From: an uncultured Candidatus Saccharimonadales bacterium
GTDB lineage: Bacteria > Patescibacteriota > Saccharimonadia > UBA4664 > SCTI01
Length of the DNA stretch: 64,000 nt
Assembly (NCBI GenBank): GCA_964632435.1
Contig: CAZWEJ010000001.1
Coordinates: 1,052-65,051, forward strand
Reading direction: 5' to 3'
In this document: in pieces, positions 37,536-46,692 of the stretch
How the letters are laid out: each line of letters starts with the position of its first letter
Numbering within the stretch: the stretch's first letter is position 1
Made by a program: the position numbers and the translations under genes
Notes under the pieces: generated by a model
Seen by the model: the letters and a program-made list of their open reading frames with translations, nothing else
Told to the model about the DNA's origin: nothing
Databases searched by the model: none

Positions 37536-39617
37536 ATGGCACGAGATTATAGCTTAGAAAGAACTCGAAATATTGGCATCATCGCCCACATTGATGCTGG
37601 TAAAACTACTGTAACCGAGGGCATCCTCTATCGAACCGGACGCGTCCACAAGATTGGTGAAGTCCATGAAGGTGAGGCAACAATGGACTGGATGGAGCAA
37701 GAGCGCGAGCGAGGTATCACTATTACCTCTGCGGCTACTACTTGTTTCTGGAATGAGCACCGGATCAACATTATCGATACTCCGGGCCACATCGACTTTA
37801 CAGTTGAGGTCGAGCGCTCGTTGCGAGTTCTCGACGGTGCAGTAACCGTTTTCGACGGCAAGATGGGCGTGGAGCCACAGAGTGAAACCGTTTGGCGACA
37901 GGCTGACAAGTACGGCGTGCCTCGCATCTGCTTTATCAATAAGATCAACCAAACTGGTGGGGACTTCTACAAGAGCCTCGAAAGCATCCATGAGCGACTA
38001 AGCAAGCGTGCGTATGCGATTCACCTTCCGATCGGTTTCGAGCAGGAAATCAATGGAATTGTCGACCTTGTTGAGATGAAGGCTTACACCTACAAGAACT
38101 ACACCGATAAGACTCTAACTGAAACTGAAATTCCAGCCGATATGAAGGAAAAGGCTGAGCGATACCGAAACCATCTAATTGAAGCAGCGGTTGAAGCCGA
38201 TGATGCCATGATGGAAAAATATCTTGAAGGCAACGAACTCTCGATTGATGAGCTAAAAATGCTCATCCGCAAAAGCGTTCTTTCAGGTGAATTTTATGCT
38301 GTCTCTGGTGGCGATGGTCGCGGAGTTATAGTTGAGAAACTTCTTGATGCTGTTGTTGATTACCTTCCAAGCCCGCTTGATGTCCCGGCAGTAACTGGAA
38401 CTGATCCAAAGACTGGTGATACTATCGAGCGAAAAGCTAGCGATGAAGAGCCATTTTCAGCACTTGCCTTTAAGATTGCAACCGACCCATTCGTAGGTAA
38501 GCTTGCCTTCTTCCGAGTGTATTCAGGAACGATAAAATCAGGCTCCTATATTCTGAACTCAAGCACAGGCGAAAAAGAGCGTGTCGGGCGAATTCTTCGA
38601 ATGCACGCTAACTCACGAGAAGAAGTTCAAGAGGTGTTTGCAGGTGAAATTGCTGCCGCTGTTGGCCTCAAGGGCACTACTACAGGTAACACATTGAGTG
38701 AGCAGTCAAAGCCAATCATTCTTGAATCAATTACCTTCCCAGAGCCAGTTATCCAGATAGCAATCGAGCCTAAGACAAAAGCCGACCAGGAAAAGATGAG
38801 TATTGCGCTCCAGAGATTAGCCGAAGAAGATCCAACCTTCCGAGTTTCAACCAACCACGAGACGGGTCAAACCTTGATCGCCGGTATGGGTGAGCTTCAT
38901 CTCGACATCATCGTTGATCGCATGAAGCGCGAGTTTAAAGTTGAAGCCAACGTCGGTCGACCCCAAGTTGCATATCGAGAAACTATTCGAAAACCCGCTC
39001 AGGTCGAAGGAAAGTTTGTTCGACAGTCAGGTGGTCGTGGTCAGTATGGACACGTTTGGCTTGAGCTTACTCCTCAAGAGCCTGGTGCCGGGTTTGAATT
39101 CGAAAACGCCATTGTTGGTGGAGTTGTACCTAGAGAGTACATCAAGCCAGTTGAAGAGGGCGTCAAAGAAGCTATGAACAATGGAGTTCTTGCTGGTTAC
39201 CCAGTAGTTGACCTTAAGGCGAAACTTTACGATGGTTCATATCACGATGTTGACTCAAGCGAAATGGCCTTCAAGATTGCTGGTTCAATGGCACTTCAAG
39301 AGGGTGTTCGTAAGGGAGACCCAGCTTTACTAGAGCCTGTTATGAAGGTTGAAGTAACAACACCAGAGGAGTTCATGGGCGATGTCATCGGTGACCTAAA
39401 CAGTAAACGCGGTCGTGTTCAAGAGATGACCGATCGTGGTCAGGCCAAAGTTGTAAGCGCATTTGTGCCGTTAGCCGAGATGTTTGGGTACACCACTACC
39501 CTTCGATCAATGACTCAAGGTCGTGCAGCAAACTCAATGGAGTTTGACCACTATGCCGAAGTGCCACCAAATGTAGCTCAGGAGATTATCGGTAAACACG
39601 CTGCTGCAAAAGCTTAA
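37536..39617 (+). CDS. fusA: Elongation factor G
   Basis: GTPase motifs AHIDAGKTT and DTPGHIDF, domains II-V. Confidence 0.97.
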
Positions 39618-39643
39618 GACAAAAAGATATCCCAAATAACTAA

Positions 39644-39670
39644 ATCGGCCTTCACCGGCCGATTTTGTTA
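39644..39670 (+). terminator. Rho-independent terminator after fusA
   Basis: atcggcc-ttcacc-ggccgat stem followed by tttgtta; a TATACT -10-like hexamer follows. Confidence 0.65.
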
Positions 39671-39700
39671 TACTGACCTTGTCCTACAAAGGAGGCTTTT

Positions 39701-40033
39701 TTGATTACGCCCTTAGAGGAGTTCGACTGGGAAGAGATTTTTGCCGAGCTGGCTAGAAACCACCTGGTTTCACAAGATCAGGCCATTAGGCTCACATCTT
39801 CCAGGGCTACCTCAACTGGGAAAATCTATACGCTCTGCTGCTTTCATGACGAAAGAACTCCTTCGTTGGTGTTCTGGCCAAACTCGGGGTTCAAGTGCCA
39901 CGGGTGCGGCGAATGCGGGCGCAGCAAGCTGGACTTTCTCGAATGCCTTGGCATTTCCGAAAAAGAGATCGATCTAATGGTCGATTCCATCAACTCAAGG
40001 TCGGTCAATCAAAACCAACTCAGGCTTCTTTGA
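39701..40033 (+). CDS. Stand-alone CHC2-type (DnaG primase-like) zinc-finger protein, 110 aa
   Basis: TTG start with RBS AAAGGAGG. The motif CCFHDERTPSLVF...FKCHGCGECG matches the zf-CHC2 signature (CPFHxExTPSF...FxCFGCGxxG). No TOPRIM domain is attached. Confidence 0.6.
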   Translation: MITPLEEFDWEEIFAELARNHLVSQDQAIRLTSSRATSTGKIYTLCCFHDERTPSLVFWPNSGFKCHGCGECGRSKLDFLECLGISEKEIDLMVDSINSRSVNQNQLRLL

Positions 40034-40252
40034 ACCGCCTCTATTTAATTAGGGGCGGTTCCAAATTGATAACCCAACCTCAACCCTTTACAAAGCGTAA
40101 ATTACTCCTTATACTAGTAAAGTCCAAATCAGGGCGAATATTTTTATGCCCAAAAAATATTAATTAAAGTTTCATTTTAGATAGCTGACCCGTTCGGCCC
40201 GCCCTGAAAACAGGGTTAACAATCTGAAATGAAACAAATAAAAGGAGAACGA

Positions 40253-41428
40253 ATGGCCGAGTTTCAACGAACTAAGCCCCACGTTAACGTCGGTACCATG
40301 GGTCACGTCGACCACGGAAAGACCACGCTAACTGCTGCCATTACCGCTGTATTGGCAAAGAAGCTACCTAGCGATATCAACAAACCTATCGCTTACGACC
40401 AAATTGATAACGCTCCAGAAGAGAAGCAGCGTGGTATCACAATCGCTACATCTCACCAGGAGTATGAGTCCGAGAAGCGACACTATGCTCACGTCGACAT
40501 GCCAGGACACGCAGACTATGTTAAGAACATGATCACTGGTGCTGCTCAGGTTGACGGTGCTATTCTCGTAGTAAGCGCTGCTGACGGCCCAATGCCTCAG
40601 ACTCGTGAGCACATCCTTCTTGCAAAGCAAGTTGGTGTTCCTTACATCCTTGTCTACATGAACAAGATGGATATGGCCGATCCAGAGCTAGCAGAGCTCG
40701 TAGAAATGGAAGTTCGTGAGCTTCTTGCAAAGCAAGGCTTCGACGAGAACTGCCCAATTGTTAAGGGTTCAGCTCTTAAGGCTCTTGAAGGCGACGCAGC
40801 TGCAGAAGACTCAATCATGGAGCTTGTTAAAGCTATGGATGAGTCAATCCCAGAGCCAAAGCGTGAGATTGATAAGCCATTCATGATGGCAATCGAAGAT
40901 GTATTCTCAATTAAGGGACGTGGTACTGTTGCTACCGGTCGAATCGACCAAGGAAAGCTCGCAGTTAACGACGAAGTTGAGATCGTTGGTATCCGCCCTA
41001 CCAAGAAAACCGTTGTAACCGGTGTTGAGATGTTCAAGAAGCTTCTTCCTGACGCTCAAGCAGGTGACAACGTTGGTGCACTTCTCCGTGGTATTGAGCG
41101 AACCGACATCGAGCGCGGTCAGGTTTTGGCCAAGCCAGGTTCAATTACTCCTCACACTGAGTTTGATGCCGAAGTATACGTTTTGAACAAAGAAGAGGGT
41201 GGTCGACACACTCCATTCTTCAAGGGCTACAAGCCTCAGTTCTACATCCGAACAACCGATGTTACCGGAGAGATCCAGTTTGAAGGTGAGATGGTTATGC
41301 CGGGTGATAACGTTCAGATGAAGGTTAAATTGATTGCTCCTATCGCCATGGAAGAAGGTCTCCGATTCGCTATCCGCGAAGGTGGACGAACCGTTGGCGC
41401 AGGTGTTGTCACAAAGATTACCAAGTAA
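40253..41428 (+). CDS. tuf: Elongation factor Tu
   Basis: ATG at 40253 preceded by AAAAGGAGAA; [17 protein letters not shown] and NKMD motifs. Confidence 0.97.
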
Positions 41429-41439
41429 CATAGATTTCA

Positions 41440-41763
41440 ATGGCTGAAAAAGACGCACCTAAACAACGAATCCGAATTAGATTAAAGGCTTACGATAACA
41501 AGGTTATCGATCAGTCGGCTAAGCAGATCCTAGATACTGCTACACGTACCGGCGCAAAGGTAGCGGGGCCAATCCCGCTGCCTACAGATCGAAATACCAC
41601 CACTGTTATTAAGAGCCCTCACATCTTTAAAAAGTCTCGAGAACAGTTCGAGATGCGGGTTCATAAGCGGCTGATTGATATCACCGAGCCGACAGCAAAA
41701 ACTGTCGACTCGCTGATGAATCTCAATCTTCCAGCTGGCGTCGACATCGAAATCAAAATGTAA
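41440..41763 (+). CDS. rpsJ: 30S ribosomal protein S10
   Basis: Conserved S10 sequence (IRIRLKAYD...). Confidence 0.97.
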
Positions 41764-41774
41764 CACTAGAAACT

Positions 41775-41794
41775 GCCCCGAAAGGGGCGTTTTT
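41775..41794 (+). terminator. Rho-independent terminator after rpsJ
   Basis: gcccc-gaaa-ggggc stem followed by gttttt. Confidence 0.7.
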
Positions 41795-41822
41795 AGTATA
41801 AAAGTCGTGTATAATTAACCAC

Positions 41823-42158
41823 ATGGTTAAACGAACAGATTTAAACACAGTTTTTCGATGTATATCCGATCCAACCCGGAGGCACATACTTGAGCATCTC
41901 TCCGAGATGGCGAGGCCGATGAGCGTGTTGGAGCTCGCGGAACCTCACAATATGAGCCTCCCCGCTGTGTCCAAGCATCTTCGCTATCTTGAGAAGGCCG
42001 GGCTTGTGAAAAGGACCGTCAAAGGTCGTGTTCATTCTTTCGAAATTATTCAGGAGCCTCTCAAGATGGCAGAGGCGTGGGTCGTATATTACCTGCAGTG
42101 TTGGAATAAGCAGCTTGATGTTATAGAGAGTACAAAAAAGGAAAGCAGCATCTTCTAA
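41823..42158 (+). CDS. ArsR/SmtB-family winged-helix transcriptional regulator
   Basis: HTH region ...TRRHILEHLSE..MSVLELAEPHNMSLPAVSKHLRYLEKAGLVKR; a TATAAT box lies just upstream. Confidence 0.8.
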   Translation: MVKRTDLNTVFRCISDPTRRHILEHLSEMARPMSVLELAEPHNMSLPAVSKHLRYLEKAGLVKRTVKGRVHSFEIIQEPLKMAEAWVVYYLQCWNKQLDVIESTKKESSIF

Positions 42159-42173
42159 CTTGTTATGGTTGCG

Positions 42174-42196
42174 TTTTGGCCTCGGTAAAGCCAAAA
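42174..42196 (+). promoter_or_regulatory. Perfect 7-bp inverted repeat TTTTGGC-N9-GCCAAAA between the ArsR gene and the downstream cassette (candidate operator)
   Basis: Not followed by a T-run, so it is unlikely to be a terminator. Confidence 0.3.
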
Positions 42197-42222
42197 TGAT
42201 ATCAACAAAGGGGTAGAAGTAG

Positions 42223-42726
42223 ATGGATTTTCAGGAAGCGATCATTTTTGTAAGTGCAGTCATTATTGTTGTGGCTGCTGGGGTTGTCCTTGGTGCGGTT
42301 ATACGGGGCAGGAGCATCAAGCAATCAGAGAAGGTTGGCTTAATTCAACAGCGCAAAGCGGAGTTATATTCGGAAATTATTGGCGCCCTCGACACAATAG
42401 TTGAAGACAATGATCAAAAAAAACAGTGGTTTATCCACCGATACTACCAAGCTCTAGTCTATGCGCCCGACAATGTGATTGCTTCCATTAATAGGTATCT
42501 TGATGGTGTTACAGCAATAGGAGCGGATCTCTCGCCAGACAAGATAATGGAGCTTCGCGGTAAAGCCGTAAGGTCAATGAGAGCAGATATCCAGGGATAC
42601 CTGAATGCTAAAACACGGCTTCCACTCCCTGAACTTTATCGAATAGAGGTTAAGGCGCCAGCACATCCGGCTCTAAAAGAAGATTCGAAAAAGAGTAAAC
42701 AAAAACCCGTTGCTCAGGAAAAATAG
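42223..42726 (+). CDS. Membrane-anchored hypothetical protein (N-terminal TM, about 140-aa soluble domain)
   Basis: TM helix AIIFVSAVIIVVAAGVVLGAVI; RBS AAAGGGG upstream. Confidence 0.5.
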   Translation: MDFQEAIIFVSAVIIVVAAGVVLGAVIRGRSIKQSEKVGLIQQRKAELYSEIIGALDTIVEDNDQKKQWFIHRYYQALVYAPDNVIASINRYLDGVTAIGADLSPDKIMELRGKAVRSMRADIQGYLNAKTRLPLPELYRIEVKAPAHPALKEDSKKSKQKPVAQEK

Positions 42727-42784
42727 TTTGCACCAGGTAAGCTTAAGAGGTATATTCAAATCAAAACCATAAAAAGAGGGAAAA

Positions 42785-42904
42785 ATGGCGGTAAAAAAAT
42801 GCACCAACAAAAACTGTAATGCGAATGTAAAGGTTTGCAAGGACAAAAGCTGTAGCGCTAAAGGCCCACACGGTCATTGTTCAAACGGGCATAAAGTAAA
42901 GTAG
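42785..42904 (+). CDS. 39-aa Cys/His-rich peptide (MAVKKCTNKNCNANVKVCKDKSCSAKGPHGHCSNGHKVK)
   Basis: My own translation; RBS AGAGGG 5 nt upstream; two CxxxxC pairs plus HGHC; below the 60-aa cut-off of the ORF track. Confidence 0.4.
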   Translation: MAVKKCTNKNCNANVKVCKDKSCSAKGPHGHCSNGHKVK

Positions 42905-42911
42905 GCCTCCT

Positions 42912-43373
42912 TTGGAAAAGCGAAAGGTCAAACGACCGGCAGGCTCGACGCGACAACAGATTGTAAAGAGATACAACTCTCGGGCTTGGTATCAGCTGCC
43001 TGATTGGGCTCAACAGTTTGTTGTTAGTGCCGCTCCTTGGTTCACTGGTCTGATCGTGGCTGTCTTGACGCCTGCAGCGGCACTTGCTCTGGTATTAGGG
43101 TTCCACTCGTTACCCCTTGAAATTATTGGGGTACCTGGGACTGAGAATGATTTTGGCTTAGCTGCATTTATTCTATTAGTAAAAGTTGCTCTACTAGCGC
43201 TAGCTCTAAAGCCCCTTTACAGGAGGCAAGCGAGGGGTTGGACTTACTTAATTTTGGCATCATTTGTCCATTTGCTTCACAGTATATGGTTGCAGCACCC
43301 CGTTTCGGGAACACTTATTTGTTTAGGGACTCTATATCTGTATAGCCAGGTACGTCGCTGGTACACGCAGTAG
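42912..43373 (+). CDS. Multi-TM membrane protein, paralog 1 of a tandem pair
   Basis: Shares the YQLP...PW... and GW motifs and overall TM topology with the next gene. Confidence 0.55.
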   Translation: MEKRKVKRPAGSTRQQIVKRYNSRAWYQLPDWAQQFVVSAAPWFTGLIVAVLTPAAALALVLGFHSLPLEIIGVPGTENDFGLAAFILLVKVALLALALKPLYRRQARGWTYLILASFVHLLHSIWLQHPVSGTLICLGTLYLYSQVRRWYTQ

Positions 43374-43430
43374 TCTTGCAGGTAAAAAGCATAAGCGGTA
43401 TACTTCGCTTAAGTAATAGAAGGATGCCAA

Positions 43431-43880
43431 ATGGCCACCTCAAACCCCTTAAATAGTATAGTAAGCTCTCTTGAGCCATATTTCACAACAAAATCGCCCT
43501 ATCAGCTGCCGAAGAACATCAGAGAGTTTTTAGTAAAATACATACCTTGGATTAATGTTGTCATCCTGGTAATACTGGCTCCAGGAATTTTGCTCGCCCT
43601 TGGCATAGGAACTGCAACTCTACCATTTAGTGGAATTGCAGGCGTCGACTCCGCAACAGGGTTAACCATCACCCTCCTTGCGCTTGTAATACAAGTTGTA
43701 TTGATGATCGCAGCGCTACCTGGTTTGTTCAACCGTAAAATCAGTGGTTGGAATCTTTCATTTTATGCTGTCATATTCAATCTTGCTTATAGCCTACTCA
43801 ATTTCCAGATTCTAAGTGGGCTTCTTGGGGCTTTGATCGGAGCTTACGTTCTATTCCAGATAAAGTCTTATTACAAATAG
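43431..43880 (+). CDS. Multi-TM membrane protein, paralog 2 of a tandem pair
   Basis: Clear collinear similarity to 42912-43373 (YQLP, PW, LP..I.GV, GW, N...N.Q.LSG). Confidence 0.55.
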   Translation: MATSNPLNSIVSSLEPYFTTKSPYQLPKNIREFLVKYIPWINVVILVILAPGILLALGIGTATLPFSGIAGVDSATGLTITLLALVIQVVLMIAALPGLFNRKISGWNLSFYAVIFNLAYSLLNFQILSGLLGALIGAYVLFQIKSYYK

Positions 43881-43884
43881 CCTA

Positions 43885-44130
43885 ATGGCCAAGAAAAACG
43901 CTACAACCGAATATGATAGTGTTTATTTCTTAAAAATTTTAATCTATCTGATTCTTGGAACAGTTTGGCTCTCAAATGGAGAAAGTCGAACCCTGCCAGT
44001 AGGCTTAATAGTGGGTATTGTGGCTGTTCAGCACGAAAAATTACAAATTGACCGAAAAATTGAGTACGCACTATTACTAATTGGAACTATTTTAGGCCTG
44101 GTAGGCATTGGTTTAACAATAAATTTGTAG
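43885..44130 (+). CDS. Small 2-TM membrane protein
   Basis: Two hydrophobic helices; tightly spaced after the paralog pair. Confidence 0.45.
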   Translation: MAKKNATTEYDSVYFLKILIYLILGTVWLSNGESRTLPVGLIVGIVAVQHEKLQIDRKIEYALLLIGTILGLVGIGLTINL

Positions 44131-44155
44131 CCGCAACATAATCAATTTCTCTATC

Positions 44156-44172
44156 TGTTGACAGATGTGTCA
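44156..44172 (+). promoter_or_regulatory. Promoter for rplC and downstream genes, with a palindromic TTGACA-gatg-TGTCAA element overlapping the -35
   Basis: TTGACA -35, 17-bp spacer, TTATAT -10; the palindrome is the reverse complement of the element at 28877-28893. Confidence 0.45.
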
Positions 44173-44299
44173 AAACTCTGTTATATTTACTTGGTAACTT
44201 TTGCTCAATTTAGAGCTTAGAACTAGGAGTTGATCTGGTCCGTGAGCCGCGGATACCGCTCGAATCCTAGAATTTGTTTTGTTTAATATAAGGAGTGGC

Positions 44300-44938
44300 A
44301 TGAAAGCCTTGCTCGGCCGAAAACTTGGAATGACCCAGCTGTTTGACGACAACGGCAATGTTGCGCGTGTCACTATAGTAGAGGCAGGCCCTTGCGTGGT
44401 TACTCAAGTGCGAACTGGCGAAAACGACGGCTACCAAGCTGTACAAATTGGCTTTGGTAAGCACAAAAACGCTAGCAAGCCGCAGGAAGGCCACGCTACA
44501 TTTGATGGCGTAACTCCTCGTCATATCAAAGAAGTTCGTATGGACGATACCGTTGTAAATGTAGAAGAAGTTGAAGGCGACAACAAGCTCAAGGTTGGCG
44601 ACAAGCTGGATGTCAGTATTTTTGAAGTTGGAGACAAGATCCAGGTAACTGGTACTAGTAAAGGTAAGGGGTTTGCAGGAACTGTAAAGCGTCACAACTT
44701 CAACACTGGTCCAAAAACACACGGTTCACATAATTATCGTCAACCAGGTTCAATTGGTTCAGGATACCCACAGCACGTATTCAAGGGAATTAAGATGGCC
44801 GGTCGAATGGGTGGCGAGAAGGTTACTACAAAGGGGCTCAAGATTGTCTCAGTTGATGCCGAGAACAACCTGATCGCTATAAAGGGCGCAGTTCCTGGGC
44901 CGCGTAAGTCAATCGTTATGATCCGAGGCGCGAAGTAA
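44300..44938 (+). CDS. rplC: 50S ribosomal protein L3
   Basis: ATG at 44300 after AAGGAG; MKALLGRKLGMTQLFDDNGNV... Confidence 0.95.
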   Translation: MKALLGRKLGMTQLFDDNGNVARVTIVEAGPCVVTQVRTGENDGYQAVQIGFGKHKNASKPQEGHATFDGVTPRHIKEVRMDDTVVNVEEVEGDNKLKVGDKLDVSIFEVGDKIQVTGTSKGKGFAGTVKRHNFNTGPKTHGSHNYRQPGSIGSGYPQHVFKGIKMAGRMGGEKVTTKGLKIVSVDAENNLIAIKGAVPGPRKSIVMIRGAK

Positions 44939-45570
44939 TGGCCCAAGCAATTATTTATTCAAAGACAGGAGCTAAGAAAGAGGCTCCAGCAAAGCTCAGC
45001 AGCAAAGTATTCGCTGTCGAAGCTAATAATGACCTTTTAAAGCAGGCTTATGAGACCTACCTAGCTAATGGTCGAGCATCAAGTGCAAAAACAAAGAGCC
45101 GTGGCGAGGTTCGTGGTGGTGGTCGTAAGCCTTGGAAGCAAAAAGGTACAGGGCGAGCGCGTGCAGGTTCAATCCGACTTCCTCACTGGAAGGGCGGTGG
45201 TGTTGCTTTTGGACCAACCGGCGAGCAAAACTACACCAAGGATATGCCAGTTAAAGCCAAGCGAACTGCTATTAGGCAAGCTCTCAGCGTTCAGGCAAAA
45301 GACAAAAAGATTGTCATTCTTGAGTCATTTACAGGCGGCGAAGGCAAGGTCAAGCCAGTTGCTCAACTCCTAGACAAAATCAATCTTGATGGAAGCGTCC
45401 TAATCGTTGTTTCCGAGAAGACGCCTGTTATTGATCGTGCAACTCGCAATCTTCCAGGAGTAAAGGTTGTTTCGGCAAAATACCTCAATGTTTTCTCAAT
45501 TCTTAACGCCGACTGGGTCGTAATGACTACTGACGCGGAAAAGATCGTAACAGAATGGCTGGAGGCGTAG
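44938..45570 (+). CDS. rplD: 50S ribosomal protein L4
   Basis: GGGRKPWKQKGTGRAR motif. Confidence 0.95.
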   Translation: MAQAIIYSKTGAKKEAPAKLSSKVFAVEANNDLLKQAYETYLANGRASSAKTKSRGEVRGGGRKPWKQKGTGRARAGSIRLPHWKGGGVAFGPTGEQNYTKDMPVKAKRTAIRQALSVQAKDKKIVILESFTGGEGKVKPVAQLLDKINLDGSVLIVVSEKTPVIDRATRNLPGVKVVSAKYLNVFSILNADWVVMTTDAEKIVTEWLEA

Positions 45571-45571
45571 C

Positions 45572-45856
45572 ATGAGCATGGCACTAGTACCACGAGTAAG
45601 CGAAAAGGCTATGGCACTTGCCGAGCAGGGAGTTTACGTATTTAACGTCCCTACAACCGCAAACAAGATTGAGGTAGCGAAGGAAGTCGAGAAGGCCTTC
45701 AACGTTAGCGTGGTTGATGTAAACATTTTGATCCATAAGGGCAAGCAAGTATCTAGGCGATACGGCAAGAATGCTGGGAAGCGCAATAATACCAAAAAAG
45801 CCATGGTTACGGTAAAGAAGGGGCAGAAAATAGCCCTGTTTGAGGAGGGCAAGTAA
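45572..45856 (+). CDS. rplW: 50S ribosomal protein L23
   Basis: Conserved L23 sequence; operon order. Confidence 0.93.
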   Translation: MSMALVPRVSEKAMALAEQGVYVFNVPTTANKIEVAKEVEKAFNVSVVDVNILIHKGKQVSRRYGKNAGKRNNTKKAMVTVKKGQKIALFEEGK

Positions 45857-46692
45857 TGGCAGTTCGACTATACAAGCCAACGACTCCAGGTCGACGAGGA
45901 ATGACCTCGATCGATACAAGTCAAATTACCAAGAAGAAGCCAGAGAAGTCACTTCTTGTGCCTATGAAGGCTGGTTCCGGTCGAAACAACCAGGGTCGAA
46001 TTACCATTCGTCACCGAGGTGGAGCGGTGAAGCGCTTCTATCGATTGGTTGATTTCCGACTTGTACCTGGGTTTAGTGGCAAGATTACCGCAATTGAGTA
46101 CGACCCAAACCGCAGTGCGCACATTGCCTTGGTCGAACTAAAGAATGGCAAGAAAGCCTATATCCTTGCAGGTAATGATATGAAAGTTGGGCAGAAGATT
46201 GAAAGCGGCTCAGATGTGGAGATTCGCCGAGGCAATCGATTGCCACTTGCCAACATCCCTGTAGGTACTCAGATTTACAATATTGAGCTAGTTCTCGGCA
46301 AAGGCGGTCAAATTGCTCGTAGCGCTGGAACAAAAGCCCAGCTCGTCGCAAAAGAAGGTGAGTTTTGCCAGGTCCGACTTCCTAGTGGGGAAGTTCGTCT
46401 TGTGAATCAGAACTGCATGGCAACAATCGGTGCTGTCGGTAACGAGGCTCACCAGAACGTTAAGTATGGTAGCGCCGGTCGTCGTCGTCGAATGGGTTGG
46501 CGCCCTACCGTTCGCGGTAAGGCTATGAACCCAGTTGATCACCCTCACGGTGGTGGAGAAGGTGGTACCGATATCGGTTTGAAGCATCAGAAGACCCCTT
46601 GGGGTAAGGCAGCACTTGGTCTTAAGACCCGACGCCGCAAATTAACAGACCGCATGATTGTACGCGGACGTAAGCAAGGTAGGAGACGCTAA
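45856..46692 (+). CDS. rplB: 50S ribosomal protein L2
   Basis: Conserved L2 sequence (HPHGGGEG). Confidence 0.97.
   Translation: MAVRLYKPTTPGRRGMTSIDTSQITKKKPEKSLLVPMKAGSGRNNQGRITIRHRGGAVKRFYRLVDFRLVPGFSGKITAIEYDPNRSAHIALVELKNGKKAYILAGNDMKVGQKIESGSDVEIRRGNRLPLANIPVGTQIYNIELVLGKGGQIARSAGTKAQLVAKEGEFCQVRLPSGEVRLVNQNCMATIGAVGNEAHQNVKYGSAGRRRRMGWRPTVRGKAMNPVDHPHGGGEGGTDIGLKHQKTPWGKAALGLKTRRRKLTDRMIVRGRKQGRRR

Follow-up and report, generated by a model that had tools for sequence, protein, structure and literature searches.

In cyanobacteria, plastids, and archaea, the S10 cluster of ribosomal protein genes is split, and rpsJ is attached to the str/tuf unit (tufA-rps10). The present analysis concerns the same junction in a member of Saccharimonadales (Saccharibacteria, candidate phyla radiation (CPR)). 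In a 64,000-nucleotide stretch of its DNA, referred to here as the window, six open reading frames (ORFs) occupy the interval between rpsJ and rplC, at positions 41764–44299. They encode an ArsR-type regulator, the membrane-anchored protein p167, the peptide p39, two paralogous proteins with four transmembrane helices (4-TM; p153 and p149), and the small membrane protein p81. A preliminary description of this DNA presented the block as a conspicuous insertion inside the S10 operon. The comparison with relatives leads to a different picture. A separation of rpsJ and rplC is the rule in Saccharimonadales, and the block is a local filling of a slot that is variable throughout the lineage. The finding is real, yet largely ordinary for its lineage. 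On balance, we lean towards a reading in which the slot lies between two transcription units, its filling is a mosaic, and the block is autorepressed by ArsR.

The control of S10 operon genes by structured RNA has been described elsewhere. In E. coli, the L4-mediated S10 attenuator precedes rpsJ (Fu et al. 2013, PMC3616713), and among the r-leader candidates catalogued in 2020, the sole one ahead of rplC is an L4 candidate from Archaeoglobi (Eckert and Weinberg 2020, PMC7247131). Leaders of ribosomal protein (r-protein) genes in this phylum were not found described in the literature searched, and the same applies to the rpsJ-rplC split and an rplC leader in Saccharibacteria. The tuf and rpsJ promoters of TM7x have been employed merely as strong promoters (Wang et al. 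2023).

The slot between rpsJ and rplC

Loci were collected by an S10 protein scan in which each species was represented by one genome. The scan provided the 80 closest loci, nearly all from Saccharimonadales, and a few extra contigs were added. The rpsJ-rplC gap was taken in each locus as the distance from S10 to L3. In 59 Saccharimonadales species, the gap ranges from 72 to 5232 bp, with a median of 1117 bp; it is longer than 300 bp in 54 of them and longer than 2.5 kb in 15. In the more distant loci (Actinobacteria, Clostridia, and other Patescibacteria), it measures 54–221 bp. Even where the gap is minimal (loci L023, L049, and L050), a promoter and an RNA leader are kept ahead of rplC. 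In the window, the tuf-rpsJ spacer is 11 nt, and for this reason rpsJ is assigned to the tuf transcription unit. Since rpsJ is tied to tuf and rplC has a promoter and a leader of its own, the cassette sits at an operon boundary and not inside an operon. Given the size of most gaps and the independent start of the rplC unit, the idea of a conspicuous insertion has to be abandoned. The tuf-rpsJ spacer varies too, from 2 to 2244 bp among Saccharimonadales (L009–L088), so both sides of rpsJ can be considered permissive junctions. The boundary between str-tuf-rpsJ and the rplC unit is read as a permissive place, in which genes without relation to each other have built up and been swapped throughout the order.

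The contents of the slot are diverse. ORFs of at least 100 aa found in the gaps form 70 similarity clusters, and 76 of 93 have the same orientation as the ribosomal genes. A search of 80 gap ORFs against Pfam returned ordinary, unrelated functions, such as adenosine deaminase, HAD hydrolase, CTP synthase, M29 aminopeptidase, PGA_cap, LPG synthase, RarA/MgsA, VanY, the ATPase of an ABC transporter, and aquaporin (MIP). No integrase or transposase is present among the 25 gap families listed (of 46 matched). NUDIX proteins, which account for 10 of the 80 scanned ORFs, are the commonest occupants after p81. A recurrent cluster of 147–175-aa ORFs (similarity cluster 2; L037, L045, L048, L060, L065, L069, L070, and L073) is a likely NUDIX candidate.

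The cassette itself is a three-layer mosaic and not one co-inherited module. The first layer is p81, which is found order-wide and resides only in the rpsJ-rplC slot. The second layer, kept at the level of a clade, consists of p167 and either a single 4-TM gene or two of them; p39, itself of sporadic occurrence, is tied to the first of these. The third layer is the ArsR gene, which is sporadic too; in a relative, it heads an ArsR-AHSA1/SRPBCC-YCII unit, the partners of which have been lost here.

These layers can be followed through the gene orders of related gaps. The gap of L094 and L095 reads HisPhos - ArsR - GNAT - p167 - p39 - 4TM - 4TM - p81, and that of L091 reads ArsR - AHSA1/SRPBCC - YCII - DUF308 - GNAT - p167 - 4TM - RarA - p81. 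L092 carries DUF4234 - 105-aa ORF - RVT_1 - HisPhos - DUF308 - p167 - 4TM - RarA - p81, L090 carries DUF308 - p167 homolog - 4TM - 4TM - RarA - p81 - 757-aa ORF, and L010 carries aquaporin (MIP) - 181-aa ORF - p39 - 4TM - 4TM - RarA - p81. A p167 homolog adjoins a 4-TM gene throughout L090–L098 (in L090, it was recognized with an hhalign probability of 100%). ArsR and p39 are not co-inherited, because each occurs without the other: p39 accompanies the 4-TM genes in L010 without ArsR, and ArsR accompanies AHSA1 in L091 without p39. RarA, DUF308, GNAT, HisPhos, AHSA1, and YCII, which occupy the gaps of relatives, were not found elsewhere in the window. The notion of an accessory, self-contained block is upheld, and the whole set is conserved only in a narrow clade; its parts, however, are not inherited as one. 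The synteny survey did not reveal the same block, with housekeeping homologs, in most relatives. Two observations on individual occupants can be added. The housekeeping AAA+ gene rarA/mgsA stands between a 4-TM gene and p81 in L010, L090, L091, and L092, and the RVT_1 gene of L092 (3298–4311), located between the 105-aa ORF and HisPhos, encodes a 337-aa reverse transcriptase that could belong to a retron or a group-II-like element.

Purifying selection acts strongly on all six ORFs. An identical cassette was found on 14 contigs from several metagenomes, and the same six genes are present in the sister species L096, L097, and L098, in which p167 is 82–86% identical. When the window is compared with L096 and L098, the nonsynonymous rate (dN) is 0.03–0.12 for all six ORFs (0.03–0.08 for p39), with a saturated synonymous rate (dS). 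The dN values of L3 and L4 in the same comparison are 0.03–0.05, and the cassette ORFs are comparable to them. The most conserved of the six is ArsR, with 96–98% identity to the sister species (98% in L096). The low dN combined with saturated dS indicates that the six ORFs are real genes, and the presence of all six in sister species at saturated synonymous sites indicates that the block is old.

The coordinates of the features are collected in Table 1. The ORF list and the pattern scan agree with the preliminary description on the places of the six ORFs, the rpsJ terminator, and the promoters of ArsR and rplC. Its count of two transmembrane segments for p81 has to be corrected to three hydrophobic segments.

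Table 1. Features in and around the rpsJ-rplC interval (window positions)
Feature	Position	Strand	Basis or remark
tuf	40229–41428	+	ORF list
rpsJ (S10)	41440–41763	+	Pfam Ribosomal_S10, 129 bits
rpsJ terminator-like hairpin TGCCCCGAAAGGGGCG and T-run, GC-rich	41774–41794	+	pattern scan; also in L096 and L098
Extended -10 box TGTATAAT	41809–41816	+	upstream of ArsR ATG
Palindrome TTAACCA-N2-TGGTTAA (N2 = CA)	41815–41830	+	candidate operator; spans ArsR ATG at 41823
ArsR-type ORF, 111 aa	41823–42158	+	Pfam HTH_5, NCBIfam HTH_metalloreg
p167	42223–42726	+	N-terminal transmembrane anchor, helical domain, disordered Lys/Pro-rich tail; orphan family
p39	42785–42904	+	basic Cys5/His3 peptide
p153, 4-TM paralog 1	42912–43373	+	TTG start; type kept as single copy in L091 and L092
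p149, 4-TM paralog 2	43431–43880	+	ALPGLFxRKxxGW motif family
p81	43885–44130	+	small membrane protein, three hydrophobic segments; start 4 nt past p149 stop
rplC-operon promoter: TTGACA, 18-nt spacer, TATATT, upstream TG	44158–44187	+	sigma-70, 11/12 match
rplC leader: long imperfect hairpin, GGUC/GA-AA-CC core, then U-run	44222–44280	+	covariance model; candidate attenuator
rplC (L3), first gene of rplC-rplD-rplW-rplB... operon	44300–44938	+	ORF list, Pfam

Two further observations concern the neighborhood. When the window is set against L096, dS is 0.31–0.46 for tuf and rpsJ (40253–41763), and all genes from arsR through rplD are saturated; a strong codon bias in both genes or a recent recombination of that segment could account for the low values. 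The fusA|tuf junction is also occupied, because a conserved 110-aa ORF sits there (39701–40033, + strand; 2488–2817 in L096). Its product matches a DnaG-type zinc ribbon (PHROG DNA primase, E 6e-07; Pfam Zn_ribbon_DnaG, weak).

The regulator and its candidate operator

The assignment of the first gene to the ArsR/SmtB family, with its own -10 box, was well founded. The protein matches Pfam PF01022 HTH_5 at 47.1 bits (cutoff 22) and NCBIfam NF033788 HTH_metalloreg at 71.5 bits (cutoff 55). Among solved structures, 3F6O is the nearest; it is a Rhodococcus protein of the ArsR family, itself uncharacterised, and aligns with residues 6–107 (E 4e-18). Gene callers shorten the protein to 77–82 aa, both in the window (start at 41925 instead of 41823) and in other loci (L001 8495–8728; L096 4690–4938). 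The start at 41823 is favoured because the 3F6O alignment begins at residue 6, which only the full-length form of 111 aa allows. The -10 box is only 6 nt away from the ATG, and there is no Shine-Dalgarno sequence, so the arsR mRNA is taken to be leaderless; the truncation by gene callers is probably due to this kind of start. In L091, the ArsR ortholog overlaps the gene for an AHSA1/SRPBCC protein, and AHSA1/SRPBCC is the usual partner of the 3F6O-type ArsR subtype.

The palindrome of the candidate operator is a perfect 7-2-7 repeat that shares the last two bases of the extended -10 box TGTATAAT and covers the ATG. It occurs only once in the window and is invariant in L091, L094, and L096–L098 despite differing promoter surroundings. 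This position and conservation suggest that ArsR is probably an autorepressor of the block. The intergenic spacers of the cassette, from arsR to p81, are 64, 58, 7, 57, and 4 nt long. The pattern scan found no terminator-like site on the + strand in any of them, and its single + strand match lies inside the p149 coding sequence. According to the same scan, the only strong promoter in the block is the one ahead of rplC. The strong constraint on ArsR after the loss of its partners, the short spacers, and the lack of terminators in them are the reasons for which ArsR is inferred to gate the downstream membrane genes at present.

A possible mechanism can be outlined on this basis. The rpsJ terminator would halt transcription arriving from upstream, and the extended -10 box would initiate a leaderless arsR mRNA. 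An ArsR dimer may bind TTAACCA-N2-TGGTTAA across the transcription start and the ATG. Such binding would autorepress the six-gene transcript arsR-p167-p39-p153-p149-p81 until a non-metal signal releases the repression. Two gene pairs, p39/p153 and p149/p81, could be translationally coupled, with their 7-nt and 4-nt spacers and no Shine-Dalgarno sequence. The transcript would end at, or read into, the rplC leader, which is the first terminator-like structure downstream of p81. Its predicted products are inner-membrane proteins and a basic, probably zinc-binding peptide, p39. The anatomy, conservation, and synteny of the genes, the conservation of the candidate operator, and the covariation of the leader are observed, and co-transcription, repression, coupling, metal binding, and any physiological role are inferred.

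Several points weigh against this picture of an autorepressed block in a permissive slot. Co-transcription and autorepression are predictions from sequence. A promoter-like site at 42727–42756 (9/12 match in the pattern scan) could drive p39 and the downstream genes independently. As one half of the palindrome (ATGGTTAA) encodes protein (Met-Val-Lys), the conservation of that half is partly explained by coding. A regulatory link between ArsR and the membrane genes would be recent, because they are not co-inherited across the clade. The strict position of p81 could be due to a functional link with the ribosomal operon and need not mean neutral residence. Finally, only part of the phylum is sampled, through the 80 nearest S10 loci and a small number of added contigs.

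The rplC leader, the orphan proteins, and rival explanations

The 200 nt upstream of rplC were aligned across the loci. They have a conserved layout, in which a promoter (TTGACA, 17–18 nt, TAnnnT) is followed by CUUGG ... A-GGUC-[hairpin]-GA-AA-CC ... CCAAG and a U-run; in the major leader class, the loop is UAACAG. RNAalifold detected compensatory changes in 11 of 13 pairs. In a cleaner alignment with a 20-pair structure, 87.7% of cells are paired compared to 32–47% in slid controls, 16 of the 20 pairs show double (compensatory) changes, and none of 500 shuffles reached the observed values. A covariance model finds exactly one match per locus in 56 loci (among L010–L094), on the + strand and always upstream of rplC. 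Its sole match in the window has a score of 24.2 bits (E 0.0022). The fold of the single sequence is not significant alone (z = -0.88), and the support for the leader therefore comes from covariation and not from single-sequence folding. An Rfam 15 cmscan of positions 39500–46000, with E up to 1, gave no matches. A covarying structure between promoter and rplC in 56 loci, with a U-run after the hairpin, is what characterizes an r-protein leader class, and by its shape the element is a candidate new r-protein leader or attenuator.

The leader and the membrane proteins could be parts of one arrangement. The rpsJ|rplC junction would then combine a new r-protein-responsive attenuator with selected membrane factors, i.e., p81 and, in this clade, the p167/p39/4-TM set. 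By analogy with E. coli, L4 would be the most likely ligand of the leader. We regard this joint arrangement as possible, though on the unlikely side. If it were true, selection would keep the lineage-specific p81 and the p167/p39/4-TM set beside the ribosomal operon because they link envelope or secretion functions to the translation capacity of ultrasmall epibionts, and the role of p39 would be that of a zinc-binding partner by which the synthesis or activity of the 4-TM protein is gated.

The position of p81 also allows for another proposal. The protein, perhaps together with the p167/4-TM set, may be quasi-housekeeping and may be kept by rplC so that a factor related to the membrane or to secretion is expressed in step with ribosome synthesis, like secY in the spc operon or secE next to nusG. 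Homologs of p81 form 165 clusters, which come from Saccharibacteria or Patescibacteria wherever the source names the organism; no Pfam domain or credible name is attached to any of them (Cas7 is the label of a single JGI entry). A hidden Markov model of p81 matched 38 loci, and every match lies in the rpsJ-rplC gap or after rpsJ at a contig end, with none elsewhere in the loci of about 12 kb. The gene is mostly the last one ahead of the rplC promoter, and the motifs E-x-DSVYFLK and DRKIEYA are invariant over 42 diverse sequences. The co-orientation of most gap ORFs with the ribosomal genes would fit such a role as well. However, the gap lacks p81 in roughly half of the species surveyed, rplC is set apart from p81 by a strong promoter and a leader, and the protein does not resemble SecG, SecE, YajC, or any family in Pfam or PDB. 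The quasi-housekeeping proposal is improbable.

The remaining proteins of the block are orphans. In Pfam and NCBIfam, only the ArsR domain was found among the six cassette proteins, and the other five had no match; no enzymatic domain was detected in any of the six ORFs, as the preliminary description had stated. The protein p167 has one N-terminal hydrophobic segment and only 11 homolog clusters. Scans of its individual members gave no consistent Pfam family, and its profile gave nothing significant against PDB sequences. The AlphaFold2 model, with helices at 3–56, 64–78, 83–100, and 105–127, has a pLDDT of 66, which is too weak for a fold search. The peptide p39 contains five Cys and three His residues in the pattern C-x4-C-x6-C-x4-C-x5-HGHC-x2-GH, has a net charge of +8, and is probably zinc-binding. 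Every Cys and His is kept in L094–L099 and likewise in L010, at 45% identity. Its gene is always directly 5' of the first 4-TM gene, and in the window its stop codon lies 7 nt upstream of the TTG start of p153. No relatives of p39 beyond its own cluster were found among 1.84 billion representatives. The possibility that it is a divergent zinc-ribbon ribosomal protein (bL32 or bL36) was rejected on account of its very narrow distribution and the absence of a Pfam match.

The two 4-TM proteins are indeed tandem paralogs (29% identity, E 6e-19), as the preliminary description had proposed. The p149 family has 167 hits, including Spirosoma, Acidobacteria, and Vicinamibacterales, and the ALPGLFxRKxxGW motif is strongly conserved. 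The closest relatives of p149 outside the CPR are from Bacteroidota and Acidobacteria. The family profile gave nothing significant against PDB sequences, and no Pfam family is consistent across its members.

A regulator, a cysteine peptide, and membrane proteins that are contiguous, tightly spaced, and kept in sister species might suggest a single sensing/effector module, i.e., a toxin/immunity system of the SdpR/SdpI/SdpC type or an envelope-stress system. In such a module, p39 would be the signal or toxin, and ArsR would be controlled through the membrane proteins. ArsR does score 54.7 bits against the NCBIfam SdpR subfamily model (NF033789), but this is well under the cutoff of 100 bits. 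Neither SdpI nor any other immunity domain occurs in the four membrane proteins and their families, and p39, with its high positive charge, lacks both a hydrophobic segment and a signal sequence. The separate occurrence of ArsR and p39 in L091 and L010 also speaks against one module. PADLOC returned only generic winged-helix matches of ArsR (Csa3/CasR-type) and an insignificant match of p167 (IetS, E 0.023), and PHROGs gave nothing for the cassette proteins beyond generic winged-helix matches to ArsR. We consider the module to have little probability, and the toxin/immunity analogy of the preliminary description is not supported. What does hold is its remark that the block matches no named system, in agreement with Pfam, NCBIfam, PADLOC, and PHROGs. 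A reading of the block as anti-phage defence was likewise rejected, as there is no significant PADLOC match besides the generic ArsR winged helix.

A metal-handling unit is somewhat less plausible again. In this explanation, ArsR would sense a metal or an oxyanion, p39 would be a metallopeptide or chaperone, and the 4-TM pair would form a short-chain transporter. The ArsR/SmtB family membership, the eight conserved Cys/His residues of p39, the resemblance of the tandem paralogs to paired short-chain CHR genes, and the NCBI source name "chromate transporter" on five p149 homologs (P0007, P0043, P0103, P0105, and P0106) would all agree with it. Nevertheless, ArsR lacks both canonical metal sites. 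On inspection and in the 3F6O alignment, the alpha-3 CxC site (ELCVCDL-type) was not found, the region being SVLELAEPH with no Cys. The alpha-5 Asp/His/His/Glu site was not found on inspection of the C-terminal helix, EAWVVYYLQCWNKQLD. By inspection, therefore, the regulator appears to be of a non-metal subtype, and its nearest structure is of a type that is paired with AHSA1/SRPBCC in L091. Pfam CHR (PF02417) gave no match up to E 1 in 57 members of the 4-TM family (p153, p149, and 55 homologs), and NCBIfam gave no chromate-transporter match for p153 or p149, which leaves the name without apparent support. In p153 and p149, the positive charges fall on the same loops, which indicates a parallel and not an antiparallel topology. 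Moreover, the non-CPR homologs of the 4-TM proteins (in Spirosoma and on two large contigs) are solitary, without conserved or metal-related neighbors. The suggestion of a role in metal handling is not sustained by these results.

A recent genomic islet, brought into the S10 operon by a mobile element or horizontal transfer, is very unlikely. It would agree with the differing interval content between species, with the closest non-CPR relatives of p149 in Bacteroidota and Acidobacteria, and with the reverse transcriptase of L092, but no integrase, transposase, nearby tRNA, or flanking direct repeats were found around the block in the window region, the GC content shows no sharp break (0.42–0.47 inside the block and 0.45–0.50 in the flanks), the six genes are old by their saturated synonymous sites, and p81 is resident across the order.

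The favoured reading of a mosaic-filled slot with an ArsR-autorepressed block has consequences for annotation. In Saccharibacteria, an "insertion in the S10 operon" is neither an anomaly nor an island, as the separation of rpsJ and rplC is normal for the order. The locus contains four conserved orphan families, which are p81 (order-wide and fixed in position), p167, p39, and a widespread, mis-named 4-TM family. It also contains an apparently leaderless ArsR-type regulator that gene callers systematically shorten, and the rplC leader is a new candidate for the autogenous control of the L3-L4-L23-L2... operon. Of the leads obtained, the orphan p81 with its fixed position, the pairing of p39 with the 4-TM proteins, and the rplC leader RNA hold the most promise. 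No major paradigm is altered by these findings.

Comparison with known systems

The SdpR-SdpI-SdpC system of Bacillus subtilis resembles the block in having an ArsR-type regulator beside multi-pass membrane proteins and a small Cys peptide. The likeness ends there, since the score of the regulator does not reach the SdpR cutoff, an SdpI domain is missing, p39 is a hydrophilic, basic peptide without an export signal, and the parts are not co-inherited. Short-chain CHR pairs also consist of two tandem paralogous small membrane proteins, and some homologs bear the corresponding name. However, PF02417 is absent, p153 and p149 have four helices each in the same predicted orientation, and the non-CPR homologs are single genes.

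The rplC leader can be compared with described counterparts. As in the E. coli S10 leader and the candidate Archaeoglobi L4 r-leader, a structured hairpin with a U-run in the 5' untranslated region stands ahead of an operon for L3, L4, L23, and L2. It differs from the E. coli leader in preceding rplC and not rpsJ, and from both in its core, GGUC ... GA-AA-CC with the UAACAG loop, which is distinct and has no Rfam 15 match.

The regulator of the window adds a new member to an ArsR subtype that is already known. It shares with the 3F6O/AHSA1-partnered autorepressors an HTH_5 match above cutoffs and a full-length 3F6O alignment, and the palindrome at its own promoter is a candidate counterpart of their operator. 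In contrast to them, AHSA1 and YCII are missing here, membrane-protein genes are located downstream, and the mRNA is apparently leaderless.

The split S10 cluster differs from the window in that rpsJ and rplC are still neighbors here, with a variable number (0–7) of unrelated genes between them, and in that the tuf-rpsJ spacer is itself highly variable among the Saccharimonadales relatives. The likeness lies in the layout of the two units: rpsJ follows closely on tuf and has its own terminator, and rplC opens a separate unit with its own promoter. The nearest known arrangement to this locus is the split S10 cluster with rpsJ on tuf.

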